Assembly: GCA_020697715.1 (NCBI GenBank) | Contig: JAEHCO010000002.1 | Coordinates: forward strand, 192,001 to 256,000 | Length of the DNA stretch: 64,000 bases | DNA from: Methanobacteriota archaeon | GTDB lineage: Archaea > Thermoplasmatota > Thermoplasmata > SG8-5 > JAGLSY01 | Direction of reading: 5' to 3' | Part shown: in pieces, positions 21,588 to 48,156 of the stretch | How the letters are laid out: each line of letters begins with the position of its first letter | Position numbering within the stretch: the first letter of the stretch is position 1 | Translations under genes and position numbers: made by a program | The notes under the pieces: generated by a model | What the model was told of the DNA's origin: nothing | Database searches by the model: none | Seen by the model: the letters and a program-made list of their open reading frames with translations, nothing else

Positions 21588-21818
21588 GCAGAGCATATTC
21601 TCAGCAATGTATATTCGGATCCATGTGAGCATGCCCCGTCTGGATAATTTATATAATATTCATTAGGGCGGGGTACTCTCAGTTGTATGCTAACGAGTGA
21701 CAGTTGCGATGTGCCAGCAGAGAAATAAACTCCTCGCTTTCAAATGCGAGGAGTCAAATCAATCCCCGCCAAGAGTTCAACGAAGGGCGGGGTCTTTATC
21801 CATACCAGTTTAACAAAC
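21588..21818. repeat. multi-hairpin intergenic element A, copy 1
   Basis: Shares ordered blocks GCAGAGCAT, AGCATGCCCCGTC, CGGGGTACTCTCAGT, GAGTGACAGTT, AGTCAAATCAA, CCCCGCC, TTATCC and AACAAAC with 22884-23090. Confidence 0.8.
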
Positions 21819-21948: not shown

Positions 21949-22071
21949 GGCTGACAGCGTTCTGCGGTTCCCGTGGACTCTCGTACCACAGTACAGCGCA
22001 GAACGCAGGTGGGCTTAACTTCTGGGTTCGGAATGAGACCAGGTGTGGCCCCACCGCTTTGACCGTCAATC
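21949..22071 (-). rRNA. rrf: 5S ribosomal RNA (stand-alone)
   Basis: Minus strand reads GATTGACGGTCAAAGCGG...CTCATTCCGAACCCAGAAGTTAAGCC...GTACTGTGG...GGGAA...CTGTCAGCC. It contains the CCGAAC loop and its termini pair. Confidence 0.95.
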
Positions 22072-22093
22072 CAAGCCATGCATAACGCTTTTC

Positions 22094-22101
22094 TATATAA
22101 A
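22094..22101 (-). promoter_or_regulatory. TATA box of 5S rRNA gene
   Basis: TTTATATA on the minus strand about 23 nt upstream of the mature 5S 5' end. Confidence 0.65.
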
Positions 22102-22278
22102 GATTCCCCATTAACCGTACCGAATCAAACTCATTACCTGCATCAATCAAATACAGATTTGATAAAATAAATGCGCAGGTTCTATGGATTAAGTCGCATT
22201 TAAAACCCTTATCCTAAAATATAGGCCATCTGTTTTGTAAGTCCATAATAATTTATACATCAGACCCAATGAACTATC

Positions 22279-22872
22279 ATGACCCACGATCACTCTCATG
22301 GCGACAAGAAATTCGATCCAGCCGGAAAGAAAAGGCTGGATGACCCAGGCCGTAAGTTGATAATGGACCCGGATAAGATATTGCCGCAGCTGGACATATT
22401 GAAAGGCCAGCTGGTCGCGGACATTGGTGCCGGGACTGGTTATTTCTCAGTCCCGTTCGCTGATTTTGTCGGTCCCAGTGGAAAAGTATATGCGATCGAT
22501 ATCAGCCAGAGTATGCTGGATTCTCTACTGGAAAAAGCAGAGGCCAGGGGCATACGGAACATTGTCCCTGTGCTTTCAGAGGAGGACACAATTCCGATAG
22601 ATGACGGAATTGTGGATATGGCCTTCATGTCCATGGTGCTTCACGAGCTGGACGGTGACGGCACACTTCAGGAGGTGCGCCGGATATTGAGGCCCGGCGG
22701 AAGACTGGCCGTACTGGATTGGAGGAAAAAAGAAACAGAGGACGGTCCTCCATTGTGGCATCGGCTCAGCCAGGAAGAAGCGATTGAAAAATGCGAGAAA
22801 GCCGGCTTTGCTTTCTCAAAAATATTCGATACAAGCCCGGGTATGTATGGGCTTGTCTTTGGGAAGAAATGA
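22279..22872 (+). CDS. class I SAM-dependent methyltransferase
   Basis: VADIGAGTG, YAIDIS..ML, VLHE and RILRPGG. Confidence 0.9.
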   Translation: MTHDHSHGDKKFDPAGKKRLDDPGRKLIMDPDKILPQLDILKGQLVADIGAGTGYFSVPFADFVGPSGKVYAIDISQSMLDSLLEKAEARGIRNIVPVLSEEDTIPIDDGIVDMAFMSMVLHELDGDGTLQEVRRILRPGGRLAVLDWRKKETEDGPPLWHRLSQEEAIEKCEKAGFAFSKIFDTSPGMYGLVFGKK

Positions 22873-22883
22873 GTTACATCAAG

Positions 22884-23090
22884 ATTTGTTAGCAGAGCAT
22901 TTTGTATTCAAGCATGCCCCGTCCCGAGAGACGCAGGGTCGGGGTACTCTCAGTGATGTGCCAGTGAGTGACAGTTACGATGTACTAGCAAAAAAATTAA
23001 CTGCTCGCTTTAAAATAGCGAGCAGTCAAATCAAACCCCGCCCCGATTAAAGCAGGGGCGGAGTCCTTATCCTCACCCAGCTCAACAAAC
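22884..23090. repeat. multi-hairpin intergenic element A, copy 2
   Basis: Same block order as copy 1. Ends ATTTGTTAGC / GCTCAACAAAC form an imperfect inverted repeat. Confidence 0.8.
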
Positions 23091-23105
23091 TATTTTCTCA
23101 GTAAT

Positions 23106-23145
23106 TTATATGAGCTTTCCCCAGGAATGCTCAACATTACATCCC
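23106..23145 (-). repeat. exact 40-bp duplicate of the 3' end (including stop) of the gene at 23254-24384
   Basis: TTATATGAGCTTTCCCCAGGAATGCTCAACATTACATCCC occurs at 23106-23145 and 23254-23293. Confidence 0.97.
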
Positions 23146-23253
23146 TGATACACCCCCACTTTTTTCTTTACCTTCGCTGTGCTGGCTTACCCTCCAAAGA
23201 AAAAAGACGGACAAAATAAGAAACTCGGGTAAGCCTGCTCGCTCAGGATTTGC
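23146..23253 (-). mobile_element. structured ~110-nt element B, copy 1 (putative non-autonomous element or ncRNA)
   Basis: Homologous to 47276-47385, with an identical 34-nt core TCCAAAGAAAAAAGACGGACAAAATAAGAAACTC. Bracketed by the 40-bp direct repeat. The mobile-element label is an inference. Confidence 0.65.
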
Positions 23254-24384
23254 TTATATGAGCTTTCCCCAGGAATGCTCAACATTACATCCCATATGCC
23301 CAAGATCCTCTCTCTGCACAGTGAGGGTTCCATCCAGCTTCCTGAAAGTGAAGTCATCCACTTCTGCCGGATATTCATTGTAATAGAGAATGGACCTCAT
23401 GCCCCATCTTCTGGGCTGTTGGAACCTCCAATAGGCTCTGGCATAGGCCTGTATCTTGATGAACATCTCCTTCTCATCATCCTTGCCAGATACGTAGAAG
23501 ACTGGCAAGCCTCTCTCGACCTCATGCTTGATCTTGATGTCCTTCTTATCGAAAAGGAAGAGCTCCTTTGTGGGGTGGTGATAGAATCTCATGTTCTTTG
23601 ATAATCGAATATCACCCCAGTCCAGCATGGATGTTGGCTTTTCAGTTGTGCGGAATATCTGTGGCCCGAAGAAGGGATTGAAGTATTCGAAATAGCTGCC
23701 ATCCTCACCGTGGCCGATACCCCAGTACCAGGTTGGTGCTGGCGCATTCACGGTCACACGTTGCTCATAGGCGGTTCCTTCAACAGGCTGGCCGTCAATG
23801 GTGCCTTTCATCTTCATGCCGTATATCTTGAGGATATTGTATCCCATCTTTTTGGTGTACTGGCGTTCATTGAAGCGATGCTCCTGCATGTAATCATTCC
23901 AGGGCGTCATCTCGAAATGAAAATCATTCTTGTCGTCCTTGACATTGACCGTGTATTTGTCTGGCCCTCCGAAGAAGCGGTAGTCCGCGCCTTCTACAAG
24001 TGGCTTGAGTTCGCCTTCTTCTCCATCATGGCGAACTTCGAAGTCCATTTCCTTAAGGACCAGAGGGTCGTGCATCTCCTTTCCATCATACCACCAGGCT
24101 GCTGTCATGCCATTGAATCGCATGACACCATCTTCTTTTGTCGTGGGCAGCTGTTTGAGCTTCCATTTCATGTCCATGACCTTGATGTCATCAGTGTATT
24201 TCGTTGACCAGAGTATCATGAACTGCTTTGTCCTGCCAGGATTGTCAGGGTCTTTTATGAAGAATATCCACCACCACCACCACCAGGTGAGATTGGGCAA
24301 CATATTGTCTGTTTTCAATACCCAGATGTTCTCATACGGCTTGTGAGCTTCAGATTCGATTTCATTGACCATTAACATGGACAT
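23254..24384 (-). CDS. hypothetical aromatic-rich beta protein, possibly tocopherol-cyclase/CrtC-like fold
   Basis: 376-aa ORF with WWWWWWIFF near the N-terminus, G.IDG..V.G.AY.Q.V, WYWG and terminal EHSWG. The fold call is an inference. Confidence 0.55.
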   Translation of the reverse strand: MSMLMVNEIESEAHKPYENIWVLKTDNMLPNLTWWWWWWIFFIKDPDNPGRTKQFMILWSTKYTDDIKVMDMKWKLKQLPTTKEDGVMRFNGMTAAWWYDGKEMHDPLVLKEMDFEVRHDGEEGELKPLVEGADYRFFGGPDKYTVNVKDDKNDFHFEMTPWNDYMQEHRFNERQYTKKMGYNILKIYGMKMKGTIDGQPVEGTAYEQRVTVNAPAPTWYWGIGHGEDGSYFEYFNPFFGPQIFRTTEKPTSMLDWGDIRLSKNMRFYHHPTKELFLFDKKDIKIKHEVERGLPVFYVSGKDDEKEMFIKIQAYARAYWRFQQPRRWGMRSILYYNEYPAEVDDFTFRKLDGTLTVQREDLGHMGCNVEHSWGKLI

Positions 24385-24467
24385 AGGGACTGGCTAAATA
24401 AATATTTTCTATGATAAATTATAGTGTTAACATCACATAAATATCAAAAGATGATCGATTAAAATAA

Positions 24468-25478
24468 CTAAGGGGAGACGCCACTATCGCCTATGACGAC
24501 ATTGAAATAAGCTTGATTTATGGTCAATGCCGATATTTTGTCGCTGTTAATTCCTAGACTTACTATCTCGGTTGGATCATCGTCATAAGTGGTATTGATC
24601 CAATTTTTGGTGAGGGTGTATTCCGTTCCATCTGCGAAATTATATTTTGCCATCGTATTATTCAGATACGAATACCACGCGCTTCCATAATGAGTGGTCT
24701 GGTTCACATAGATCCAGCCAGTAAGTGCATCTGTTGGGACTGACGCAGTGCTATCCACATCATCATAAGTGGCAGTGGTTGCAGATCTGAGATAAGTGGT
24801 AATTCCTCTATTGTCAAATCCATTGAAGGTCTGATTATTGCCGATCATGGATATCTGGGTGATGACCATGTTATATCTGCTTCCTTCCTGTCTAAAGGTG
24901 ATCTGAGGGGGTGCTTTAACAAGTTCTCCCTCTTTCTGGCTGAGAATTATCGCATCATTCTCATAAACCATGGTCTGGATAACGAAATACCTGTTTGGAA
25001 CAAGAAGTCTGACCATTCCACTGGAATTGCTCCAGAACATACGGTTGCCATCCTCTGGGCTACTAGCACCAGTTACATTGTACACCCAGTTGATCTCTGA
25101 TTTTGAATCTGCCGGGTCTGGATTGACCGATAATTGTCCCATCGTGGGAGCCGCGAACATTGGTATACCCTGCGCTCCCAGGGTTACTGGTGAATAAAGT
25201 GAGACATCGTACTTCCCCATCATTCCTGCCAGTATCTGAATATTGATACTGTGTTTCAGGGTGGCGAACTCTCCTTCCACATCATTCATGTGTGTTGCCT
25301 CATTATCCTCCATCCAGATGGGGACATATTGGTTCATGAACATTGATAAGAATGTGAGAAATATCATCATCGCCATGATGGTACCTATGGTGGAGGATAC
25401 GCCCTCATCATCCCACGATAAGCGGCGGGTCAATCGCTTTATATTGTGACCCTTATTGTTAGAATTCTTCGATAACAT
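24468..25478 (-). CDS. archaeal type IV pilin-like protein (class III signal peptide)
   Basis: RRLSWDDEG|VSSTIGTIMAMMIFLTFL, VPIW...EATHM and YFVIQTMVYENDAII. ATG at 25478 preferred over the TTG at 25502. Confidence 0.75.
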   Translation of the reverse strand: MLSKNSNNKGHNIKRLTRRLSWDDEGVSSTIGTIMAMMIFLTFLSMFMNQYVPIWMEDNEATHMNDVEGEFATLKHSINIQILAGMMGKYDVSLYSPVTLGAQGIPMFAAPTMGQLSVNPDPADSKSEINWVYNVTGASSPEDGNRMFWSNSSGMVRLLVPNRYFVIQTMVYENDAIILSQKEGELVKAPPQITFRQEGSRYNMVITQISMIGNNQTFNGFDNRGITTYLRSATTATYDDVDSTASVPTDALTGWIYVNQTTHYGSAWYSYLNNTMAKYNFADGTEYTLTKNWINTTYDDDPTEIVSLGINSDKISALTINQAYFNVVIGDSGVSP

Positions 25479-25713
25479 GAGGTAATTCCACCACTTCTTC
25501 AATTAAGCAAATCTGCTATTTATATGTATCGTGGAATATAGATTTCACCATAAGTAATACGCTGTTTTCGAGTACACTGGCATATATTAATTTCAAATAT
25601 TTTATACAGACTAATTATTGATTAAATAATGATTATTATTGGGTTATAACCACTATATTATTATATACTCTGTGCAAGATACACTATACTATAGAGGCAG
25701 AGAAGGTGATTCT

Positions 25714-28700
25714 TTGAAGAGGAGAATAAGCAGAAAATTAGTTTGGGATGATAGAGGTGTCAGCGAGGTTGTAGGTACGATCTTAATGCTGGCCATAACC
25801 GTTGTACTTTTTTCGAGCATAACCATGTGGGTGAGCAGTATGCCAGAGCCACAGGGTCGCATATATCTCGATATCGAAGGCAGAATTGTCCCTGAAGATA
25901 TAAATGACATTACTCAAGGTGCGGAGATACGTCTATTGCATGTGGGTGGTGTAGATCTCGATAATTTTTGGACAACATTGGTCGTGAAGATCGATGGCAC
26001 GCGTACCATACTGGATATGGAAGACAGCACCACTCCTCTTGGTGATTTTTGGGAAGCCACAGAGACATGGACCTATGATATTGCTGCAGGAGTTCTCACC
26101 AATAACTCTGATGTAAGTGTCTCCATAGTCGATAGGGACGTGGATACCCAGGTATGGGAAGGTTCCCTGATGGGAGAGAACACATGGTTCGAGCCAATAA
26201 TCATGAATGTCTGGATAGACTCAGACCTTGTAAGTGAATTCCCGGATCCTGGTCCTATACTATATTCACCGACTGAATTCATGATATTTGCTCAAATAAT
26301 CGATCCAGAGGGCGACCATCCCGATCATGGATTGAACATAACCAATGTGTGGGTCAATATGACGCCAATTGGTAGAGGCTATGTCCAGTTAACCGATGGT
26401 GATTCCGATAATGTATTTACTGGCACTATACAGGGACCAACTGGTGACTTTGGTATAGGTTACTATGAATTTGTGGTCAATGCCACTGATTATGATGGTA
26501 AGTATGTGGAACAGACATTCAAATTCTCTGTAGGTGGCGATGTTGGGCAGAATCCTCAAATAATCGTTGGTAAGAACAACATTACCTCGGGCGAGAAATA
26601 TATTTGGACTGTGCCAGAGAATCCACTTCATGGAGATACGGTCCAGCTATATGCCAAGATCAGGAACCGCGGGGGAGCTGGAGCCATGGTGGATATAAAT
26701 TTCTGGGATAATACAACTGGAACGAATATCAGCACGGTCCAGGCTTTGATCAACTTTGGAGATTACATTGTGTCCACGCCTTGGCTGGCAAGCCCTGGTG
26801 GATTGCATAATATCACAGTGAATGCCACCGTGAATGAGACCTGGTCCATAAAAAATGGAATATCTGAATTAATTGTCATTGATAATCAAAATAGTACTGA
26901 GGTCATAGTTCTACCGACCATCCTTCTGGTGGATGATGATGCGCATATGAACGATGGCAGTCTGGCGGATACGTCCGCATTCATGCGCGCCTCTCTTGAA
27001 GCCTCTGATTTCAATTATGATTTCACTGTTGTGAGCACAGGTGGGGATGGTCCTGCCTATAATGAAGGTGATTATCGTTTGGAGGAATACGATATCGTGA
27101 TCTGGATGACGGGCTATGAAAAGTCCTATACCTTGAAGGTCAGTGATATGGAGAATATCTGGGCATTCCTGAACAATAGTGGAAGTCTCTGGGTCATCGG
27201 AGAAGGGATATTCGAGGATCCCGTTGTGACAGACCTATTCCTTAGCGACCTTCATGCCACAAGAAAAACAGGTCCCAATCCTAATCCTGTAGATGTATAT
27301 GATCTTAAAGATAGGGACATTTGGGGAATGGCTGGGCATAATGTGACTGATTATTTCTCAGTTAAGAATATCACATTGAGAGAGAGGATAGATGGCTTCT
27401 CAGATGGATATGACCTCGGTTGGGGCTCTGGAGAATTTGCCCTTTTGAACAATGATACAGCTGCTGACATAATACTGGCTACTAATTACAGTGATGATGC
27501 AGGCTTAGGAATGAGAATATTCACCCAATCCTTTGAATTCTCCATGATAGAGACCACGGCGGATATGGCTCAACTTTCATACAAGGTCATCACCTGGCTT
27601 GGAAGGATAGATATGAAGTTCGGAAGGGATCTTGCGGTCTCGGAGCAATTCATATCACCATCCACCGTGTTCTATCAACAGCCAGTTACCATAACTGGTG
27701 TGATACGTAACAATGGTTTTGCCATAGAACCATCTGTCAATTGGTCACTGACCATTACAGAGCCTGATGGGACTGAATGGAACTTCAAAAGCACAGACCC
27801 AACCGATGAAGACGGTAATGTGTCTTTGGGCATTGGGCAGGATAATTCATACACTATAATCAGGGAATGGACACCCCGTTTAGTTGGTATTCACACTATT
27901 GTCTTTGAGGTCGATCCAGATAATCAGATAATCGAGACCAATGAGGATAATAATGTGTTATCTGACCTGCTTGAGTCTGGTGAGATTAATGTTCAATACA
28001 TTGTACTGGTTGTGAACGATGAATCAATTGGTGGGATAAATGAAACTGGGAATATTACAAGCGCTCTTGATTCATTGAACTATGATTATGACCTTATCAA
28101 TGGGACTGAGGCCAATGATACCACACTCACGAAATACAATGCCATCATCTGGGTCGGAGGAGATACTTTTGATCCATTGTCTACTGAGCAACAGGAGAAT
28201 ATCACTCTTTATCTTAATGCAAATGGTCGATTCTGGCTGACTGGCAGGGATTGTGTTGGCGATGACATAGATACCGATTTAGAGATAGATTATTTCCAAT
28301 TGAATACCATAACGACAAATGTGGCAATGCCATCAACATTACAAGGTTTGGACACAAACCCCTTGGCTCCAAACCCGATCACACATGGTATGAAATACGA
28401 ATCGAATGGAACTCATGATTGTGACTCGATAACTGGATCATCGGCAGATAATGTGACTGGTATATTATATCAAGATAAAACTGCTGGGATCAATGGAACA
28501 TTCAATGGCATCAGTTATGACAGCGGGACATACCGAACCGTGGTAACGACCTTTGCCATTAACTCGCTCAATTCCACTGATGACAGAGAGGAACTGGTCT
28601 TCATGATCCTCCACTGGTTCGATAAGCCAGATGAGAGAACCGAGCTCAGAATAACCGATTCAGATATCAAGATAAGGGATTCTGTGGGTATAATGACACA

Positions 28701-31188
28701 CCCACAGATAGGGGATGCATACATCCTCCAGGCAACAGTGCATAATCCTGGAGGCGCCGATGCCAATTTCCTTGTAAGGTTCATGGATGGCACGACCCAG
28801 ATAGGAGCAGACTCTGTGTCCATATCCGCGAATGGAAGGACAACGTCTGAAATAGTCTGGATACCTCTCTTTGCAGGACAAAGGAATATCAATGTCTTCA
28901 TAGATCCGCTCAATGAGGCCGATGAGATATTCGAGACATCCAATAATCTGGCGACCAAGCCCATTTACGTTTACTTCTTCTGGGATGACATGGAGAATGG
29001 AACATACAGATGGCAGCACTCCAGTACCGTGATGCTAATAAACGGAGAAACACCATTGGATTATTTCTCCGAGACCGCACTGTACACGGATATCGCGACA
29101 GAGTGGAATGAGACCGTGAATGTATCCGAATGTACTGATCCAGGCTTCTTCAATTCCTATGATAAATCCTTCTGGATGCAGGAGCCACCAGGTAATCTGA
29201 CCGCTCAGTCGGTGACGAGGGCAGTAATGGAGCCCGAGATTAATGCTATCTTGAATGAAACACGATACATGGACGATGATAATGTTGTGGTGAATGGTGC
29301 AGATGCTAATGACCTTACACTTACTCAGACTGCTGGTAGTGAATTCACTGAATCGCCTCTTGTAGGAACTGGAACTACAATATATACAGGCATGATGGTC
29401 TATATACGCAATCCTCAGGGTGTAAAAACATTGATATCTGGAGGAGTTGTCGGAACCGTTGCAAGGGCATGGGCAAATAATGCTGGTGGCCTCCAAAGCA
29501 CAACCTGGACGCCCCCTTCGACAGCTATGGTTGCCAATGAATCAATAGAGATTGAGATATATCAGTCTATGAACGTTGATCCACCAGTAGATTTTGCAAC
29601 CAATTTCACAACAGAGCAACTTGGAGCAAATAATCTAGAAAATGTTTCCTGGACCATCTATTATTACACACATGGGGCTAAATCAGGTGGTTCGGAGAGA
29701 GGTCGTTTCTACTATGGTGACGCAACTTACAATTCCCGAATAGAGAATTTCCAGTATAATTTAGCAAATCTGCCACCTACAATAGGCACTCCAAGTCCTG
29801 CCAATGTTACAGTTGGAAATCCAACTAACGTGAACCTAACATGGATGTCTGGTGATGCAGATAATGATACAGTATACTTCGATGTCTATCTTGGTTATCT
29901 TGGAGATGATATTGGAGATATGACCCTCATTGCTAATGACATCACAAACAATTATTTCGAGGTCACTGGTCTTGATGAAGATGTCATATATTCCTGGATC
30001 GTGGAGTGTGATGATACCTTTAACCCTGTTGTTAGTAGCCCGACCTGGGTATTTGCCACAGCAGGTATAGAAAGTGGAGGTAGTGGAGCATTCTGGGGTC
30101 TAACACCAAATGGAACTGCCAATATCAATAAAACAGCGATCACTGAAAGTGTTGACCTGAGCAATACTGAATCATCCACCTTGTCATTCTGGCACAAATA
30201 CAATATGATATCCGGAGTGAATGGCGGTGTGCTGATGGTGGGTTATAAGGAATCTGCTGGAAGTGATTTCAAATACAAATATGTCATTCCATCAAATGCC
30301 TATACTGGCAGTCTTTTAACCAATGACACTGCTAGGCAAGATGACTTCGGAACCTGGATGAGATGGGCCTGGAATGGTGTCAGCACCCGCGGAACATTTG
30401 GCTGGGAAAAGGTCACCTTAGATGTTCTGCCATATGTGCCCAATACGACCAATGCCACATACAATTACCGATCAGATGTGCGCATCCAGTTCGCTTATTA
30501 CCAGTATGGTAGCGGTAGTGGCTATGGATGGTACATAGATGATGTCCGAATTGAAGCATCTAGATCTGATTATGTGGCCCCTAATTCAAATGTCGCAGAT
30601 GTCTGGAACCTTACCGATGAGGACTCTCATAGTGGCGACTGGTCATGGAGCAATTATGATCCTGATGATCAAGATGGTATGAAGCCCGGTATAGACAATT
30701 CCTTGATGACAAATCCGATCGATCTTACGAATGCCAGATGGGCCGAGTTCAGCGCTTACTTCAAGTTCAATATAAACACAGAGAATGGTGCGCCACCAGA
30801 TGGTTTCAGAATTGAAGTGACCTCGGACAATGGTGTCACATGGAAGGATATGACCCTTGGTGTTAGATCTGCCTGGGGTGTTTCTGGTACTGGTACTGAT
30901 CTGGATGACAATAATTCTGATGATAAGTCTTACACTGGAATTCCAGATTCTGGTGAGGGAAATGCTGTAGTGGATGGTTATTGGGTGGAAGCTGGAACCC
31001 TGACACGTCTCAATATCGATCTCACACCATACTCAGGCAAGGCCATACAGATAAGGTTCAGGGTGGTAACCACTCTGACCGTTCCTGCCACTGCATATGA
31101 TCATTATGCAGATGATACAGTGGGCTTTGGAGGATTCTGGGTAGATGATGTGATAGTGCGTGGAGAGACCACGAATGTATACGGATAG
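25714..31188 (+). CDS. giant type IV pilin-like adhesin with CARDB-type Ig domains (paralog 1)
   Basis: WDDRG|VSEVVGTILMLAITVVLFS, VDPDNQIIETNEDNN and LLVDDD modules, GFWVDDV. TTG start at 25714 after GGTGA. Confidence 0.8.
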   Translation: MKRRISRKLVWDDRGVSEVVGTILMLAITVVLFSSITMWVSSMPEPQGRIYLDIEGRIVPEDINDITQGAEIRLLHVGGVDLDNFWTTLVVKIDGTRTILDMEDSTTPLGDFWEATETWTYDIAAGVLTNNSDVSVSIVDRDVDTQVWEGSLMGENTWFEPIIMNVWIDSDLVSEFPDPGPILYSPTEFMIFAQIIDPEGDHPDHGLNITNVWVNMTPIGRGYVQLTDGDSDNVFTGTIQGPTGDFGIGYYEFVVNATDYDGKYVEQTFKFSVGGDVGQNPQIIVGKNNITSGEKYIWTVPENPLHGDTVQLYAKIRNRGGAGAMVDINFWDNTTGTNISTVQALINFGDYIVSTPWLASPGGLHNITVNATVNETWSIKNGISELIVIDNQNSTEVIVLPTILLVDDDAHMNDGSLADTSAFMRASLEASDFNYDFTVVSTGGDGPAYNEGDYRLEEYDIVIWMTGYEKSYTLKVSDMENIWAFLNNSGSLWVIGEGIFEDPVVTDLFLSDLHATRKTGPNPNPVDVYDLKDRDIWGMAGHNVTDYFSVKNITLRERIDGFSDGYDLGWGSGEFALLNNDTAADIILATNYSDDAGLGMRIFTQSFEFSMIETTADMAQLSYKVITWLGRIDMKFGRDLAVSEQFISPSTVFYQQPVTITGVIRNNGFAIEPSVNWSLTITEPDGTEWNFKSTDPTDEDGNVSLGIGQDNSYTIIREWTPRLVGIHTIVFEVDPDNQIIETNEDNNVLSDLLESGEINVQYIVLVVNDESIGGINETGNITSALDSLNYDYDLINGTEANDTTLTKYNAIIWVGGDTFDPLSTEQQENITLYLNANGRFWLTGRDCVGDDIDTDLEIDYFQLNTITTNVAMPSTLQGLDTNPLAPNPITHGMKYESNGTHDCDSITGSSADNVTGILYQDKTAGINGTFNGISYDSGTYRTVVTTFAINSLNSTDDREELVFMILHWFDKPDERTELRITDSDIKIRDSVGIMTHPQIGDAYILQATVHNPGGADANFLVRFMDGTTQIGADSVSISANGRTTSEIVWIPLFAGQRNINVFIDPLNEADEIFETSNNLATKPIYVYFFWDDMENGTYRWQHSSTVMLINGETPLDYFSETALYTDIATEWNETVNVSECTDPGFFNSYDKSFWMQEPPGNLTAQSVTRAVMEPEINAILNETRYMDDDNVVVNGADANDLTLTQTAGSEFTESPLVGTGTTIYTGMMVYIRNPQGVKTLISGGVVGTVARAWANNAGGLQSTTWTPPSTAMVANESIEIEIYQSMNVDPPVDFATNFTTEQLGANNLENVSWTIYYYTHGAKSGGSERGRFYYGDATYNSRIENFQYNLANLPPTIGTPSPANVTVGNPTNVNLTWMSGDADNDTVYFDVYLGYLGDDIGDMTLIANDITNNYFEVTGLDEDVIYSWIVECDDTFNPVVSSPTWVFATAGIESGGSGAFWGLTPNGTANINKTAITESVDLSNTESSTLSFWHKYNMISGVNGGVLMVGYKESAGSDFKYKYVIPSNAYTGSLLTNDTARQDDFGTWMRWAWNGVSTRGTFGWEKVTLDVLPYVPNTTNATYNYRSDVRIQFAYYQYGSGSGYGWYIDDVRIEASRSDYVAPNSNVADVWNLTDEDSHSGDWSWSNYDPDDQDGMKPGIDNSLMTNPIDLTNARWAEFSAYFKFNINTENGAPPDGFRIEVTSDNGVTWKDMTLGVRSAWGVSGTGTDLDDNNSDDKSYTGIPDSGEGNAVVDGYWVEAGTLTRLNIDLTPYSGKAIQIRFRVVTTLTVPATAYDHYADDTVGFGGFWVDDVIVRGETTNVYG

Positions 31189-39890: not shown

Positions 39891-42800
39891 TTGATGAGAA
39901 GGGGAACACAGAATAGTGTGAATTTCGCAGGAAAATGTATGAGCATCATCATCGTGTGGTGCATGGTCTTGAGTGGTTTCATGGGCCTGTTCTTGGTCAA
40001 TGTGGGAACTGCCAGTGAGATCAATCCAAACACGATCAAGGAAGATCTGGTTGTTGACTCAGGTGACTTTGTCATAGAGAGTTTTCCCTGGGATCCACAA
40101 GGGAGCTGGATATATGATCTAGATGGCAGTGTAACTGTAACTGGAGCAAACTCATTGATATTGAAGAATTCTACATTGAACATACTTCAACTAGGCGCCT
40201 ACAGTCTGGATGTTTCAGCTGGTGGAACCATTAAAATGACAAATTCCACTATCACCACAGATTCTCTTGAATTCCTAAATGCCAGTTTTATTACAGGCTC
40301 AAATTTGATAATGGATGATAACTCGGCTCTTCTTTTCCCAGGAAACTTAACTTTTGATACCTCATCTGTTAATATAAAGGATTCTCAAATTATTAACCCG
40401 GTCATATATTTTGATACATGTACTGATGTGACCATTGCTGACTCTAAGATAGTGGTTCCAGGAAATGCTAATGGCTCATTCTATTTGGATAGCACAGAAA
40501 TGTCTATTATCAACACAGACATAAATTTTGATTATACTCTTGATAACAATACTAATTGCCAGATGAATCTAACTGCTGGCTCATATTTGTATGCCTATAA
40601 CATGACTGTTGGAGACCTTACAGAACCAATTTTTATCTTCGCTGATGCCGTCTCTGAAGTTTACTACTACAAATGGGCAGAGTTCTCAGTTGTTGACTCA
40701 AATAATAATCCAATATTCGGGGCTGGATTGAGTTGTGATTACCATCACACAGATGCCGCAGCCATCACCTATGTGGATAATATGAATAATCTGGCATTAG
40801 CTCCACATACAAATGCAGATGATCGGATGATAGATTATTTGAATAGAATATCACCAGACACCATCACCTCTGCAAACTATGATGTGACTAACAGTGATGG
40901 TATGGCTCTGATTCCTCTATTTACTACCCTTCATTCACAGGCTGAACAGGCAATAGATGTAGACGGACACCATTATGGAGAATATAATGTTGATGTCACT
41001 TATTCGGCAGAAACAGGCTACACCTATGTTGACTTTTCACCATATCCGGAAATTAAGTTGATAAATAATACTGTTGAGGCCCCGCCAGTTCAGATGACAG
41101 GTGTTACATTGACAAGGCCAGATCTCACACTCGTGCCAGGCGATATCACTTTCAATCCAGCTATGGATATCATGATCGGTGATTCTGTTGAGATCAATGT
41201 TACAATTAATAATGAAGAGATCACCAATGCACTGGATGTTTTCGTTCAGATATTTGATTATGATGATCTGTCTGGTATACCAACAGAGATATACAACACG
41301 ACCATAGCTTCAGTACCTGGTAATGATGATGTGTATTTTTTGATAGATTATATCTTCCTAGTGGGAGGCCTGCACGATATCATGGTGGTCATAGATTACA
41401 ATAATACAGTAATAGAAGAGAATGAGATGAATAACTCAGCTATTGCTTCTATCTATGTAACTCCAGACCTGCCCGAATTATCCATCGAGACCGCAAATAT
41501 TGGATTTTCACAGGAGAACGTCTCCTTTGATAATGAGATCACAATAACTGCCAGGGTTCGTAATAATGGAACATTGAATGGAACCAATGTGTTCGTATCT
41601 TTCTTTGATTCAGATCCAGACATGAATGGCGATGGAATCGTGGATAATAATGATGATGAACATTTCACTGTTATAGGCACAACTAATATTCCAAATATAA
41701 TGCCTGGTGAACTCATAACTACTTCGGTCAATTGGATACCTGAGATAGATGGAACATATACGATCTATGTTTGGGCGGATCCAAGCAATAGCTTCACCGA
41801 GTATTATGAGGATAATAACCTTGCATCCAGAGATATCATCATAACACCGAAACCAAACCCAACAATAACCAACTTCGCCTTTGATGATGATACTCCAATA
41901 ACTGGACAGACCGTTGAATTGTCATTGGATCTTATCAATATTGGAAACATCAATGCAACTGGAAATATCACAGTTGAATTCTATGATTATGATATGTACG
42001 GCAACCCTCTTGGACTGATCGGAACAGCACATATGAAAAGGGATCTGAACATGACCGAGACACACGTGATCTTGCAGGATTGGACACCAGTGAACATCGA
42101 TTATCATATGATACAGGTGATCGTGACCTCGGACAATGATGTTGATGAGGGAGACCTTACAGATAATGTATTCTACTTTGACATACTCGTATATGATGAT
42201 GGGTTCCAGGATCTTATAGTCAATAACACATTGCCTTTGTATTCTCCAATGGATCTTGAGATCATAGGAGACTACGGGCTGGATGGATATGCCCTTGTTG
42301 AAGAAAATGGCGTATTGACCATAGATTCCTCTACTTTCACCGTTAAGCAGGACTTTTCGTTCCAATTCAATATGATCGTCAAGGATAATGCGGTATTGAA
42401 TATTCTGGACACTTCGTTTTTGACAGCTGGTAGTTTCATGGAGCTTAATATCATGGATAATGCAGTTGTCAATATAGTTGGATCAAATCTGCCAACAACT
42501 CTCAATATCATCGCAGATGATTCTTCAACTGTGAATATCATTGGTTCAGTTATTGGTGGAATATTCAGCGCACCTGCTTCGGATGCGGATGTCACCCTCT
42601 ATGTGGAGAACTCCACCTTCTACAAACCTATGAATAATTTCGGTGGAACATCCACTGCACAACTTGTCGCATTGACAATGGCAATACCATCAATATTGGC
42701 ACAGGAATCCGCAAAGATAGAAATATACAGATGGCTGGATGTTCAGATATTGGACGCCAATGGATATCCATTGCCTGGAGCTGATGTTGATCTACATTAT

Positions 42801-45755
42801 CAGGTCGGAGACATATTCCAGGATACTCAGACAACTGATATGGATGGAAAAGTCCTGTTCATGGCTCTTAGTGATACTATCGTATATTCCGTACACCCAA
42901 GCGCGGCATCTACCAGTAATTACAGATTGACTTCTAGCTTCCTTACATATCAGGACCACATCAACATAACACTGCCTTACTATCCTGTCATGACATTGGC
43001 ATCAAATTACATTGTGAAGGATGCCAATGGTGTAGATCTATTGATCACCATGGATGGCGTCAGACCTGATCTTGATCCACCAATATATGTATCACCAAGT
43101 GAATTGGGTAGGAATGAGATATTGGAGATCTCGACAGTAATCAATAATCTTGGTAATGTCACAGCACACGATATCGTTGTAAGATTCTATGATGAGACCT
43201 TTGATGAGATCATCGCGGAAGTTCCAATGGAGCCATTGGCTGTCGGAGAGAGCCGAAGCGTCAATATCACTCACAGTTGGAGTAGCGAGATGTACCTGGG
43301 AGTACACAATATCTCGGTCACAGTGGATTGGGGTAACCTTGTCAAAGAACTGGATGAAACAAATAATCATGCATACACCAATGTGACTGTGGTCGGAAGA
43401 GCTGATCTCACCATTGGTGATTACGGCATTTCGATCGTTCAAGAAAGCGTTGTGAATCATCCGATCAGCATAGGTGTTATAGTGGATAATATTGGAGATA
43501 TTAACACAGCCGATGTCACTGTTAGTGCTTATTATGATGATGATGTTGACGGAACCTATAGTAATCTCACTGGAAGGAACATGACCTTCATTGGTGAGAC
43601 CACCATAGCTCTCATAATGCAGGGTAGCTCAGCTAGTATCGAGCCAATTGTATGGGTCCCGGACATGATCCAGACCTATAATATCACAATCATTGTTGAT
43701 GAAGGACTCGCCATCACCGAGGTCGATGAGGACAATAATATTGGTACTGACTCCATTACGGTAAATGATTACTCCGATATCTATGTTGGACAGGTACTCT
43801 TTATTGTTGATGGACAGGCTGTCACAGAGGTGAACAACAGAACCTTGGTCACAATAAGGGCTCTTGTTAACAATACTGGTGGGACTGCCAATACCGGTAT
43901 CGCCCGCTTCTATGACCATTATGACAATGAGATCGGTAATTACATATTGCCAGTCATCGGCACAGGTCCGGATGATGGTGTCATCGTCGATATGGATTGG
44001 TTCCCAATGGAAGACATGAATGGAAATTCGGTCACCAGGAATGTCGAGGTCAGGGTCACAGATATTGGAATGGGAGAGAACATGGGAGGACAGAGCAATA
44101 CCCTCACCGAATCTATAACCATCAATGATCCTCGCGCGGATCTTACCGCTGCAGTTGATGATCTCAATGTCATTACTGCGGATATCTTCGTATCTAGTGG
44201 ATTTGATGTTAATATCACTGTTTACAATAATGGTGATGACCCGGCTCAGAACTTCACTATTGAAGTGTTCTATGATGATATCATGGATGGGAACCGCATC
44301 GGAAGCATGATCGTGCAGACCCTTGCTGGAGATGCTAATGTCAGCGTGGACATGACCTGCATGGGAATACCAACCGATGGAGAACATTTCCTTTTGGTAT
44401 CAATTGACAGGGATGTTACAGATGATAACTTCACCGCGAATGGTATCAATTACAATATTACGGGTAATGTGGAAGAGTTCAATGAGATGAACAATGATCT
44501 GATCAATGTAACTATCGATGTTAGTATCCCTGAATATATCATCACTCTTGACTCACCTTCCCCTGATATCAGCTATGAATTGGGATCGGACATCAATAAT
44601 ACATTTGTGAGTGGACGGTTGGCAACAGCGACTGATGATGTTGGTGTTCCTGGAGTGACTATCACGATAACCCTTGGCACAAATACGGTGACAACGGAAA
44701 CAGATAATTATGGTAGCTTTGGAATCTCCATACCTCTGCCAACAGTTGTTGGACAGTACCAAGTGACAGCAAGTGCAGATAATTCCGAGGACACGACAAC
44801 ACAGATCAACATGGATGCAGAACCAGAAGATCCTATCTTGTTCTATATTATCATCATCATAATTGTTATTGTTGCAGTGATAGTGGGTATCACTCTATTC
44901 TACTTCAAGGGTCTTGGGAAGACCGTGGAGTGTGGAGAGTGTGGTGCTTTCATACCGGAATCAGCTTCCAAGTGTCCAAAGTGTAATGTCGAGTTCGAGA
45001 CAGACACAGCCAAGTGCAGTGTTTGCGGTGCATGGGTGGAAATGAATAGCAAAACATGTCCTGAATGTAGCTCGGAGTTCACCATTGGGGATGAGGAGAT
45101 CGATGATTACAAGGCCCAGATGAAGAAACAGTACAATGAAGTTGTCAATGGATTTAGAACAGAAGCTAAGAAAGAACTTGGCAGCTCATTCTCAGAAGAA
45201 GACTTCCAGGCCTGGTGGGCGACACAGGCCACCTTCATAACCTTCGATCAGTGGCTGAAGGAAGACGAGGAGATGAAACGCCTCGGATCCAAGCCATGTC
45301 CGAACTGTGCGACACCAAACAGCGTGACAGCAACCATCTGCCATAAGTGCGGAACTGTTATGGACGAGGAAAAGAAGAAGGCGGCACCAGCTGTTGCAGC
45401 AGCACCAGTGGCGGTTAAGAAGAAGGCAGAACCAGAAGTGGCAAAACCTGAAGCAAAACCAACACCTGCAGCTGAACCAGCAAAGGCAGCTGAAGAGGCA
45501 CCAGCCGAGGAAAAACCTGCTGAGGAACCAGCAGGGGATGAGAAGAAGAAATGTCCATCCTGTGGCATGGAACTCGGAGCCCATGAGAAGTCCTGTCCGA
45601 TATGCGCCTATGAATTCGACAAGGGTGATGAGAAACCTCCAGAAACTGGTGGCAGCCCGCCAGAAGGTGGAGCCGCACCAACCAAGAAGGTCGTTAGAAA
45701 ACCTGTCAAGAAGGTTGTAAGAAGGCCTGTACAAAAGACTGGTGGCGGCGAATAA
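39891..45755 (+). CDS. large CARDB-repeat surface protein with TM and cytoplasmic zinc-ribbon tail
   Basis: Multiple PDL/ADL...N.G...E..E.NN CARDB units and a TM helix (ILFYIIIIIIVIVAVIVG), then eight CxxC motifs and a K/A/P/E-rich linker. Confidence 0.8.
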   Translation: MMRRGTQNSVNFAGKCMSIIIVWCMVLSGFMGLFLVNVGTASEINPNTIKEDLVVDSGDFVIESFPWDPQGSWIYDLDGSVTVTGANSLILKNSTLNILQLGAYSLDVSAGGTIKMTNSTITTDSLEFLNASFITGSNLIMDDNSALLFPGNLTFDTSSVNIKDSQIINPVIYFDTCTDVTIADSKIVVPGNANGSFYLDSTEMSIINTDINFDYTLDNNTNCQMNLTAGSYLYAYNMTVGDLTEPIFIFADAVSEVYYYKWAEFSVVDSNNNPIFGAGLSCDYHHTDAAAITYVDNMNNLALAPHTNADDRMIDYLNRISPDTITSANYDVTNSDGMALIPLFTTLHSQAEQAIDVDGHHYGEYNVDVTYSAETGYTYVDFSPYPEIKLINNTVEAPPVQMTGVTLTRPDLTLVPGDITFNPAMDIMIGDSVEINVTINNEEITNALDVFVQIFDYDDLSGIPTEIYNTTIASVPGNDDVYFLIDYIFLVGGLHDIMVVIDYNNTVIEENEMNNSAIASIYVTPDLPELSIETANIGFSQENVSFDNEITITARVRNNGTLNGTNVFVSFFDSDPDMNGDGIVDNNDDEHFTVIGTTNIPNIMPGELITTSVNWIPEIDGTYTIYVWADPSNSFTEYYEDNNLASRDIIITPKPNPTITNFAFDDDTPITGQTVELSLDLINIGNINATGNITVEFYDYDMYGNPLGLIGTAHMKRDLNMTETHVILQDWTPVNIDYHMIQVIVTSDNDVDEGDLTDNVFYFDILVYDDGFQDLIVNNTLPLYSPMDLEIIGDYGLDGYALVEENGVLTIDSSTFTVKQDFSFQFNMIVKDNAVLNILDTSFLTAGSFMELNIMDNAVVNIVGSNLPTTLNIIADDSSTVNIIGSVIGGIFSAPASDADVTLYVENSTFYKPMNNFGGTSTAQLVALTMAIPSILAQESAKIEIYRWLDVQILDANGYPLPGADVDLHYQVGDIFQDTQTTDMDGKVLFMALSDTIVYSVHPSAASTSNYRLTSSFLTYQDHINITLPYYPVMTLASNYIVKDANGVDLLITMDGVRPDLDPPIYVSPSELGRNEILEISTVINNLGNVTAHDIVVRFYDETFDEIIAEVPMEPLAVGESRSVNITHSWSSEMYLGVHNISVTVDWGNLVKELDETNNHAYTNVTVVGRADLTIGDYGISIVQESVVNHPISIGVIVDNIGDINTADVTVSAYYDDDVDGTYSNLTGRNMTFIGETTIALIMQGSSASIEPIVWVPDMIQTYNITIIVDEGLAITEVDEDNNIGTDSITVNDYSDIYVGQVLFIVDGQAVTEVNNRTLVTIRALVNNTGGTANTGIARFYDHYDNEIGNYILPVIGTGPDDGVIVDMDWFPMEDMNGNSVTRNVEVRVTDIGMGENMGGQSNTLTESITINDPRADLTAAVDDLNVITADIFVSSGFDVNITVYNNGDDPAQNFTIEVFYDDIMDGNRIGSMIVQTLAGDANVSVDMTCMGIPTDGEHFLLVSIDRDVTDDNFTANGINYNITGNVEEFNEMNNDLINVTIDVSIPEYIITLDSPSPDISYELGSDINNTFVSGRLATATDDVGVPGVTITITLGTNTVTTETDNYGSFGISIPLPTVVGQYQVTASADNSEDTTTQINMDAEPEDPILFYIIIIIIVIVAVIVGITLFYFKGLGKTVECGECGAFIPESASKCPKCNVEFETDTAKCSVCGAWVEMNSKTCPECSSEFTIGDEEIDDYKAQMKKQYNEVVNGFRTEAKKELGSSFSEEDFQAWWATQATFITFDQWLKEDEEMKRLGSKPCPNCATPNSVTATICHKCGTVMDEEKKKAAPAVAAAPVAVKKKAEPEVAKPEAKPTPAAEPAKAAEEAPAEEKPAEEPAGDEKKKCPSCGMELGAHEKSCPICAYEFDKGDEKPPETGGSPPEGGAAPTKKVVRKPVKKVVRRPVQKTGGGE

Positions 45756-47204: not shown

Positions 47205-47230
47205 AAATATATCACTCGCTCGGTTGCCAC

Positions 47231-47275
47231 TTATTTCTTGTACTTAGCACAGATCTTAATGAAATTCTTAAAAAT
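47231..47275 (-). repeat. exact 45-bp duplicate of the 3' end (including stop) of the GMP synthase subunit A gene
   Basis: TTATTTCTTGTACTTAGCACAGATCTTAATGAAATTCTTAAAAAT occurs at 47231-47275 and 47386-47430. Confidence 0.97.
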
Positions 47276-47385
47276 CTCTTCCCCACCACTTTTTTCTTTA
47301 AACCTCGCTGTGCTGTATCGGGCTCCAAAGAAAAAAGACGGACAAAATAAGAAACTCGCCCGACCCTGCTCGCTCGGTATATGAT
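47276..47385 (-). mobile_element. structured ~110-nt element B, copy 2
   Basis: CCACTTTTTTCTTTA...TCGCTGTGCTG...34-nt identical core...CCTGCTCGCTC, as in 23146-23253. Bracketed by the 45-bp direct repeat. Confidence 0.65.
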
Positions 47386-47958
47386 TTATTTCTTGTACTT
47401 AGCACAGATCTTAATGAAATTCTTAAAAATATCCTCGCCGTACTCAGTATGCTCGACCTCTGGGTGGAATTGCACACCATAGAATGGTTTTTCCTTGTGC
47501 GCGAAAGCCTGGTGCGCACAATCTTTTGAATGCGCGAAGTTCTTGAAAGTGTCCGGTAGAATTTTGACCTCATCATTATGCGATTCCCATACTTGGAAAG
47601 GGTTTGTCACACCTTCGAAGAGTTCATTCTCCTCTTCGATGATGACCGATGTCTTTCCGAACTCCGGAATGCTGGCAGGCCCGGCGGTTCCACCATAATA
47701 AAGGGCCATGAACTGTGCGCCGACACATATTCCCATGATCGGAAACTTCGCTTTGTCAAGATAGTCGCCGCTGTTTCCCAGCATAAGTGCTTCCTCACCT
47801 ATTCTTGGTGCTCCACCAGATAGGATAAGACCATCGACATCCAGGTCCTCGAAGGGTGTGGTATTTGGAATTATCTCTGTTTCCACATCCAGATATTTCA
47901 AAACCCTCCACTCTCTATGGGTCCACTGTCCGCCATTGTCTACAACGAAGATCTTCAT
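47386..47958 (-). CDS. guaAA: GMP synthase subunit A (glutamine amidotransferase)
   Basis: MKIFVVDNGGQWTHRE, LSGG, GICVGAQ, SHNDEV and QFHPEV.HT. Start set at 47958. Confidence 0.92.
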   Translation of the reverse strand: MKIFVVDNGGQWTHREWRVLKYLDVETEIIPNTTPFEDLDVDGLILSGGAPRIGEEALMLGNSGDYLDKAKFPIMGICVGAQFMALYYGGTAGPASIPEFGKTSVIIEEENELFEGVTNPFQVWESHNDEVKILPDTFKNFAHSKDCAHQAFAHKEKPFYGVQFHPEVEHTEYGEDIFKNFIKICAKYKK

Positions 47959-48156
47959 TGACGGGTACATGATGAGATGGGATAAAATGGTTGTGGAAAT
48001 CACCTTATGTTCATTGATATTTTCCAAGTCTTGCTAGAGATATCTAAAATCTGGCAATTAACAATGTTTAGATGTGTTTGCCAGCACACAATCTGGATAG
48101 CTAACCAACAGTAACTATTAATAAGAAATAATTGTATGCAGTTAATGAGGATTAAA

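Follow-up and report, generated by a model that had tools for sequence, protein, structure and literature searches.

In the reading that we favor, Element B would be one copy of a non-coding, mobile interspersed element of ~97–100 nt that occurs in a subset of Thermoplasmata archaea, and one of its strands would take either of two folds, a long interrupted hairpin or a pseudoknotted state in which a three-stranded helix caps a single-stranded copy of the element. We put the probability of this whole reading, with the mobile element, the two folds, and the triplex cap taken jointly, at roughly 45%. Of its parts, the sequences themselves show the family, the hairpin, the crossing helix, the common register of the three tracts, the duplications, and one empty site, and the triplex, the choice of strand and of RNA or DNA, and the capping are inferred. 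That Element B is a small structured interspersed element with an unusual tertiary design is well supported, and as far as our literature searches show, its fold has not been described before for an archaeal repeat, given that no paper was found describing either Element B or ENE-like triplexes in archaea.

Layout of the Two Copies

The window, that is, the whole stretch of 64,000 nucleotides that was analyzed, contains two copies of Element B. In copy 1, the T-tract (23159–23169), which is the 5′ strand of the crossing helix and the 3′ A-rich tract on the minus strand, is complementary to the loop tract A1 (23196–23206), which is in turn the U-tract b of the minus strand. Between these two tracts lie the 5′ strands of the hairpin, namely those of the outer helix P0 (23171–23177, pairing with 23241–23247 and holding a tandem T·C/C·T mismatch), of the near-invariant P0b (23179–23183, pairing with 23236–23240), and of the variable stem S1 (23184–23192, with its 3′ arm at 23227–23235), and the alignment also places beside the P0 strand a bulged T (23178) that reads A on the minus strand. 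The second loop tract, A2 (23213–23223), mirrors A1 and is the candidate third strand, being the U-tract a of the minus strand, parallel to the A-tract, while the 3′ strand of P0 (23241–23247) forms the right end of the element. All the coordinates that an earlier note on this DNA had given for the arms, the A-tract, and the T-tract of copy 1 proved correct when checked letter by letter. Copy 2 (47289–47378, with an extent of ~47282–47381) has its T-tract at 47289–47299, its P0 strands, as aligned, at 47302–47308/47372–47378, its S1 arms at 47315–47323/47358–47366, and its loop tracts A1 and A2 at 47327–47337 and 47344–47354, respectively.

Each copy is flanked by perfect direct repeats that equal the last 40 nt (copy 1) or the last 45 nt (copy 2) of the minus-strand gene on its right. 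To the left of copy 1, 23106–23145 (minus strand) is an orphan of the final 40 nt of the gene 23254–24384 that includes the stop codon and is 100% identical to 23254–23293, where this intact gene has its true 3′ end and stop codon. Likewise, to the left of copy 2, at 47231–47275 (minus strand), there is an orphan of the last 45 nt, also including the stop codon, of the gene 47386–48027, and the 3′ end of this intact gene (47386–47430, minus strand) constitutes the right repeat.

When the two copies are compared, S1 pairs 5–8 of the nine differ on both sides with the pairing retained, just as the earlier note had read them as four consecutive compensatory changes, and the loop that it had described as identical indeed contains an exact 32-nt core match (23194–23225 vs. 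47325–47356), with none of 100 shuffles giving two matches. The accompanying statement that the residual mismatches become G–U pairs on the minus strand holds for one of the two mismatches of copy 2, where A·C turns into G·U, but not for the other, where T·C turns into G·A.

Family Size and Distribution

By means of BLAST, nhmmer, and a covariance model, ~22 copies of Element B were found in its own 2.1-Mb genome, with the covariance model being built on 18 of these 22, since the 4 copies with nested insertions were excluded. Matches are present in 5 of the 5 genomes of the family, in 20 of the 22 of the order, and in 31 of the 151 sampled genomes of the class, in certain families only. A strict pattern search through 185,579 species genomes returned 103 matching stretches; among the 80 of these that were listed, 78 have titles of archaeal MAGs (such as Thermoplasmata and Methanomassiliicoccales), and the 2 bacterial ones are probably chance matches. 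One exact match to the pattern was also seen in an 8.1-kb viral contig of IMG/VR, at 138–208. An Rfam cmscan search of 22000–24500, with E-values up to 10, assigned no family to Element B, its sole real match being a 5S rRNA gene (22000–22070, minus strand, 56.7 bits) that is cut by the edge of the searched stretch, and this search gave nothing in favor of the ribozyme that the earlier note had listed among its options.

For the comparative work, 120 copies from relatives and 20 copies from other families of the class were aligned to the covariance model, and 156 distinct full-length sequences were obtained from the 22 genomes of the order together with other families of the class. Rows cut at contig ends were dropped, leaving 138 of 143 rows, with 136 distinct sequences.

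The Long Hairpin

The covarying stem that was first noticed from two copies is sustained by the family, given that S1 has 102 distinct arm haplotypes among 136 sequences, 32 of them perfectly Watson–Crick. The outer helix P0 (7 bp, with conserved mismatches), P0b, and S1 together make a hairpin of ~22 bp, and in 103 distinct copies, 83.3% of its cells are paired vs. 63.9% in shuffles, 15 of its 19 pairs change on both sides, and its covariation score is 0.434 vs. 0.126, a value reached by 0 of 500 shuffles, keeping in mind that the copies are related, and that shuffle controls therefore overstate the significance. In controls in which the arms were slid, 26.5–49.9% of the cells are paired.

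P0 also covaries strongly, with 57 haplotypes, 702 Watson–Crick cells, and 215 “other” cells that are mainly the tandem mismatch. It occurs in versions such as CCTCGC/GCTCGG, ATTTTC/GAAAAT, GATTTC/GAAATC, CCGAGC/GCTCGG, and CCTCAC/GTTCGG, and its outermost pair is found as all four Watson–Crick types. P0b, which together with the first S1 pair (G23184–C23235) reads G–C, T·T, C–G, G–C, T·T, G–C, is near-invariant and has no covariation, and its pairing is neither supported nor refuted. The folding energies of single sequences are not significantly different from those of shuffles (z from −0.27 to −1.74), and the evidence for the fold is therefore comparative. In this comparative sense, the covarying hairpin and the crossing helix described below uphold the view of the earlier note that selection acts on a single-stranded fold.

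The Crossing Helix and Its Coexistence with the Hairpin

Covariation also supports the pseudoknot topology that had been proposed, with the loop of the hairpin pairing with a tract outside it. The crossing helix is real, as judged from its pairing per position and from its covariation in a distant set of copies, and what had to be corrected was its length, which is ~15 bp instead of 11 bp. When the best ungapped pairing of the 5′ flank with the loop is taken for each copy, the crossing helix shows 87 distinct haplotypes and a mean length of 14.2 bp (range 9–19). In the table of pairing per position, which covers 126 of the 136 copies because the 10 having their best duplex on A2 were left out, positions 1–15 are paired in 76–100% of the copies, and the background (33–49%) begins at position 16. 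Anchoring on the best duplex favors pairing, and hence the count was repeated on the distant alignment, which was fitted to the hairpin only and is thus blind to the crossing helix; in these 20 copies, the 14 crossing pairs are formed in 84.9% of the cells, 6 of them show changes on both sides, and one is U–A in 10 copies and C–G in 8. The crossing-helix score is 12.25 for cognate tracts, 9.59 for non-cognate tracts, and 6.98 for shuffled loops, and compensation is also found outside the T/A runs, as in GGAA/TTCC vs. GTAA/TTAC, CTCTTTC/GAAAGAG, and TCCTTT/AAAGGA.

The linkers constrain how both helices could coexist. Only 0–3 nt separate the end of the crossing helix from the base of P0, and 2–4 nt separate its loop partner from the tip of S1, and because these linkers are so short, a straight 22-bp hairpin excludes the crossing helix. 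S1 and the crossing helix together are feasible, whereas P0 and the crossing helix can form at once only when the hairpin bends back on itself in the mismatch-rich P0b, and otherwise they have to alternate. In structural terms, either P0 and P0b may open to give a classical H-type knot made of S1 and the triplex, with the freed 3′ strands as a third loop, or P0b may be the point at which the hairpin bends back. Since P0 covaries, it must form at some stage, and two alternating states seem more likely than simultaneous helices. The minimum-energy fold of the minus strand of copy 2 contains the crossing helix in place of S1.

The Third Tract and a Candidate Triple Helix

The apical loop is a mirror repeat, that is, its 3′ half A2 reverses its 5′ half A1 and is in register with the T-tract. 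In classes with runs of 3, 4, 5, 6, and 7, the T-tract, A1, and A2 agree in how far the A-run extends from the stem before the first G. Over 132 copies, the run lengths of the T-tract and A1 are equal in 115, those of A1 and A2 in 89, and those of the T-tract and A2 in 84, the latter vs. 44.5 expected, with 0 of 10,000 permutations reaching 84, and in 25 further copies, a flanking C that has become A is the sole difference. A third strand that runs parallel to the purine strand has to be a mirror copy and not an inverted one, whereas a second Watson–Crick partner would be an inverted copy. In 97 of 156 sequences, A2 is nearer to the reversed purine tract than to the direct one (29 are ties, and 30 are farther), and in the distant set, it is nearer to the reversed tract in 20 of 20 copies, with mean runs of 10 vs. 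7.6.

In the distant set, the three tracts vary in concert at position +4, where 10 of the 20 copies have T:A*A, 9 have C:G*G, and 1 has another combination, and nine consecutive positions follow the triple rule, four of which (−3 to 0) are fixed by the anchoring. In the element’s own clade, the rule extends over ~7 positions, breaks at one “reset” position (38% canonical), and then resumes (79% and 66%). A Hoogsteen score with free shift did not discriminate between models (parallel 7.8, antiparallel Watson–Crick 7.4, and non-cognate 7.3) because the core AAAGAAA is symmetric, and for the same reason, the case for a third strand rests on the register and on the asymmetric tracts. The interruptions of the three tracts match the Hoogsteen plus Watson–Crick rules of triplexes of the ENE/MALAT1 type, both in register and at position +4, and judging from these comparative patterns, the loop and the T-tract probably form a three-stranded helix. 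The linker between the two loop tracts accepts nested inserts in 3 of the 22 own copies, one of them, by eye, of ~70 nt.

The Folding Strand

Most likely, the strand that folds is the minus, or gene-sense, strand, as had already been suggested, and the types of mismatches in S1 and P0 point in this direction. Counted on the plus strand as distinct haplotype cells, A·C outnumbers G·T among the transition mismatches by 26 to 6 in S1 and by 20 to 6 in P0, whereas in the crossing helix the ratio is reversed, with 48 G·T vs. 32 A·C cells, which speaks against the minus strand. On the minus strand, the conserved tandem mismatch is 5′-GA/3′-AG (74 of 100 rows in P0 and ~30 of 100 in S1), and the P0b mismatches and the bulge are A·A and A, respectively, vs. 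pyrimidine mismatches on the plus strand. A transcription-linked mutation bias could mimic the mismatch bias of the hairpin. On the minus strand, the triplex would be of the pyrimidine motif (U·A–U and C+·G–C), in the order Hoogsteen tract, Watson–Crick tract, and 3′ A-tract. The same three-tract pattern fits a purine-motif triplex on the plus strand of DNA, a motif that in this case is plausible only for DNA.

Mobility and Genomic Setting

Element B is mobile, with its copies sitting behind gene ends between duplications of 17–126 nt, and one empty site is at hand. Flank repeats with a score of at least 16, and lengths of 17–126 nt, are present in 63 of 137 copies; the null distribution has its 95th percentile at 9.5 and a maximum of 48, the latter because other repeats are common to the flanks, and hence the cut-off at 16. 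The empty site is the orthologous site of copy 2 in the same-genus genome G004, which contains neither the element nor the duplicate, and in another genome of the same genus (G002), the ortholog of copy 2 carries nested insertions that split its loop and 3′ arm. The flank repeats, that is, the orphan gene ends, decay with age.

According to the ORF and ARAGORN predictions, 10 of the 22 own copies have, no more than 25 nt from their right end, the 3′ end of a gene or tRNA that runs in the direction of the minus strand, and in 4 of the 22, a gene or tRNA of the plus strand ends no more than 30 nt from the T-tract. Two own copies start right after the 3′ end of plus-strand tRNA genes, and several lie between convergent genes. 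ARAGORN found no tRNA in the whole window, and a scan for stop codons in the 150-nt flanks of the relatives’ copies was uninformative on gene orientation.

Several side observations concern the sites themselves. A 10–12-nt copy of the element’s own 3′ end (CTCGCTCGG-like) is found at 47211–47222 in the window, left of the orphan repeat of copy 2, and genome G002 carries another, older orphan of this gene end, which together suggest repeated insertion at one gene end. Nested inserts are seen in three copies of the own genome (G000:C11:637382–637545, C29:70245–70478, and C12:89–315) and in the copy-2 ortholog of G002, located between the two loop tracts and once also just past the 5′ arm, and by eye, they look like a third small element of ~70 nt with two hairpins. 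A separate small hairpin insert splits the 5′ side at C29:70500–70651. In two relatives (G017:C48:1330–1583 and G019:C11:32–286), two identical copies stand in tandem ~160 nt apart, with a 79-nt repeat between them, which looks like local amplification of the element plus a spacer. The window also contains parts of a separate repeat of ~190 nt, called “Element A”, which starts with a GC-rich hairpin (21666–21770 and 22903–23095), is matched by BLAST 23 times in the own genome and many times in another genome of the genus, and adjoins in part several Element B copies. Three very long plus-strand ORFs (25639–31188, 39891–45755, and 48136–54258) of 1849, 1954, and 2040 aa, respectively, are also present in the window.

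Several candidate mobilizing enzymes were considered and set aside. The reverse transcriptase domain RVT_1 is found in 2 of the 22 genomes of the order and not in the own genome, which disfavors a SINE-like retroposition; the own genome, which is 94% complete, has no match to DDE_Tnp_1 (PF01609), the one DDE family that was searched, which covers mobilizers of the IS4/IS1634 type, and no match to PF07282, which stands for TnpB with an omega-RNA. This genome contains one tyrosine recombinase, which is located on another contig.

Proposed Explanation and Its Alternatives

We propose that one strand of Element B, probably the minus strand, which is gene-sense for the preceding gene, takes one of two folds. 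The first would be the long interrupted hairpin, running from P0 over the mismatch-rich P0b to the variable stem S1. The second would have the tract outside the hairpin paired over ~15 bp with one half of the apical loop, and the mirror-image half of the loop lying along this helix as a third strand, giving U·A–U and C+·G–C triples on the minus strand in the order U-tract, U-tract, and 3′ A-tract. This second fold would cap the single-stranded copy of the element by burying its A-rich 3′ end in the triplex, and the capped copy, either a read-through transcript or a single-stranded DNA intermediate, would be recognized while being copied to new gene ends. We infer this capping and marking of a single-stranded copy because the boundaries of the element match those of the fold. 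The T-runs on both strands would then be incidental archaeal terminator signals for the flanking genes, as a side benefit to the host. Among the points against this explanation are the following: the loop U-runs of the minus-strand RNA reach 6–7 U, and since they precede the A-tract, archaeal transcription should terminate before the A-tract is made, and furthermore, the copies behind plus-strand tRNA genes would need their own promoter for a minus-strand RNA. We also consider a bolder version, which is unlikely as it stands, where Element B would carry the first ENE-like 3′-end triple helix outside eukaryotes and their viruses, on an archaeal mobile element, and where the triplex would cap the A-rich 3′ end of a single-stranded intermediate and then set it free to anneal to gene ends rich in T, in an undescribed transposition route that leaves duplications of 17–126 nt. 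If this were true, the Element B fold would be part of a new transposition mechanism.

Two alternatives place the function of the T-runs in the host or in transcription. In one of them, which we consider unlikely, Element B is a host 3′-end module, namely, a bidirectional oligo-T terminator for converging genes, whose hairpin and triplex stabilize the 3′ ends of read-through mRNA against 3′–5′ decay in an ENE-like manner, with the fold being selected in place. The T-runs on both strands, the genes in minus-strand orientation that end no more than 25 nt away in 10 of 22 copies, the several copies between convergent genes, and the two copies directly after a tRNA 3′ end are all in line with such a module, and ENE-type triplexes do stabilize RNA 3′ ends according to the excerpts used of a review (PMC13541005). 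Nevertheless, the nested insertions that split the loop and 3′ arm of the copy-2 ortholog in G002 argue against selection at the locus, one sub-family keeps the pairing with T-runs of only 3+3, and as the A-tract comes after the U-runs, it may be missing from most transcripts. That same sub-family bears on the switch suggested in the earlier note, where the crossing helix would sequester or free the U-tract and thereby gate termination and read-through into the duplicated segment. The competition between the hairpin and the crossing helix, with the latter used instead of S1 in the minimum-energy fold of the copy-2 minus strand, and a linker geometry that points to two states speak for such a switch; however, we consider this gating very unlikely because the U-tract is transcribed before its partner on either strand, and the helix cannot exist at the moment when the polymerase meets the U-tract. 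Moreover, the run of at least 5 T behind the gene on the coding strand that characterizes an archaeal oligo-T terminator is present on both strands of copies 1 and 2 and absent in the sub-family with 3+3 T, which keeps its pairing, and the orphan gene ends decay, so that reading into the duplicated segment is without evident use.

The other two alternatives assign the mobility to a known class of transposase. It is distinctly unlikely, in our opinion, that Element B is a REPIN/RAYT-like hairpin repeat handled as single-stranded DNA by a single-copy Y1 (HUH) transposase, with the crossing helix and the third strand providing recognition at the DNA level, even though the fold is strand-specific and the size, extragenic position, and inverted-repeat build of Element B are as in REPINs, as these are described in the parts used of a preprint by Bertels and Rainey. 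Y1_Tnp is found in 16 of the 22 genomes of the order, and in 7 of the 7 high-quality ones, mostly as one copy, a pattern reminiscent of domesticated RAYTs, for which no archaeal example is reported, and the own genome has a single IS200-type Y1 gene (G000:C1:16359–16709). Against this, an Element B copy is near the Y1 gene in only 1 of 12 loci (where “Element A” gave no BLAST match at any of the 12), Y1 is present in two genomes with no Element B match (G008 and G009), and it was not found in six genomes that carry the element, all of which are 59–83% complete. Besides, REPINs and IS200/IS605 elements are not known to leave long target duplications such as those of Element B. Very unlikely, finally, is a double-stranded MITE, in which the hairpin arms would be the terminal inverted repeats of a DDE-type element similar to IS1634/IS1549, the tracts would be protein-binding or bending sites, and the single-stranded fold would be irrelevant. 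IS1634 and IS1549 do make long and variable target duplications, and those flanking Element B are also long and variable, but ends bound by a transposase should keep their sequence, whereas S1 has 102 arm haplotypes that change on both sides; in addition, the mismatch types are strand-asymmetric, the T-tract lies outside the supposed inverted repeat and covaries with the loop, and DDE_Tnp_1 has no match in the 94%-complete own genome.

Comparison with Known Systems

Element B resembles the REP and REPIN sequences in being an extragenic hairpin repeat of ~100 nt near gene ends that persists vertically, and in having a single-copy Y1 transposase alongside it in most genomes. It is unlike the REPIN/RAYT systems in that the Y1 gene is not flanked by Element B (1 of 12 loci) and in having long target duplications, which REPINs are not known to have. 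REP systems have GTAG/CGTC tags, as named in the abstract of PMC3733652, and none was seen at the ends of Element B in the alignments read by eye, while REPINs are reported as not detected in archaea in the portion used of the Bertels and Rainey preprint.

With the IS1634/IS1549 elements and with restriction-modification units, Element B shares the long and variable target duplications at gene 3′ ends. For these units, the sections used of Furuta et al. 2010 (PMC2853133) describe, for a gene-less kind of insertion, direct repeats of tens to >100 bases that vary in length and often overlap the 3′ end of a gene, and within these sections, no archaeal case of long-duplication insertion survived the screen. 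Unlike these kilobase-sized coding units, the insert of Element B is a structured non-coding sequence of 100 nt, and it offers a handle on small structured elements that duplicate gene ends. The comparison with a MITE of DDE transposons was discarded since the arms covary instead of being conserved and the duplications are of 17–126 nt instead of a short fixed length. An integron attC site was discarded as well, given that the copies are dispersed, solitary, and located behind unrelated genes, and that the sole tyrosine recombinase is on another contig; the R-box consensus of attC was not seen in Element B.

As to the fold, Element B is similar to the triplex-containing H-type pseudoknots of telomerase RNA and of the SAM-II and preQ1-II riboswitches, where a helix also crosses the hairpin loop and a U-rich loop strand runs parallel to the purine strand of the second stem. 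It differs from them in its far longer helix (~15 bp), in the extra outer helix P0, which is unable to coexist coaxially with the crossing helix, and in having many genomic copies, variable stems, and no ligand or enzyme context.

A further comparison is with ENE-type triplexes, including KSHV PAN, MALAT1/MEN-beta, and the dENEs of transposable elements in plants and fungi. Their features, tract order included, are dealt with in part in the excerpts used of PMC13541005, where prokaryotic major-groove RNA triplexes are placed in riboswitches and group II introns, and triplexes capping 3′ ends in viruses and eukaryotes. Element B differs from an ENE in that its U-tracts share one apical loop with a linker of 5–12 nt, instead of forming an internal loop between two stems, and in that its A-tract abuts the base of a 22-bp hairpin. 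Poly(A)-dependent decay of that kind is absent from its archaeal host, and no curated Rfam model matches Element B. On the other side of the balance, the minus-strand tract order of Element B is that of the ENE plus A-rich tract triplexes, a single C+·G–C position would stand among the U·A–U positions as it does there, and most copies have a non-triple “reset” after ~6–7 positions, as ENE triplexes do. Like the dENEs of plant and fungal transposable-element RNAs, moreover, Element B is tied to mobile elements. With more than 150 natural variants showing three-way covariation, it provides a comparative data set for the rules of triplex formation, and if its fold were to act on DNA, it would enlarge what is known of how the structure of single-stranded DNA guides mobility in archaea.
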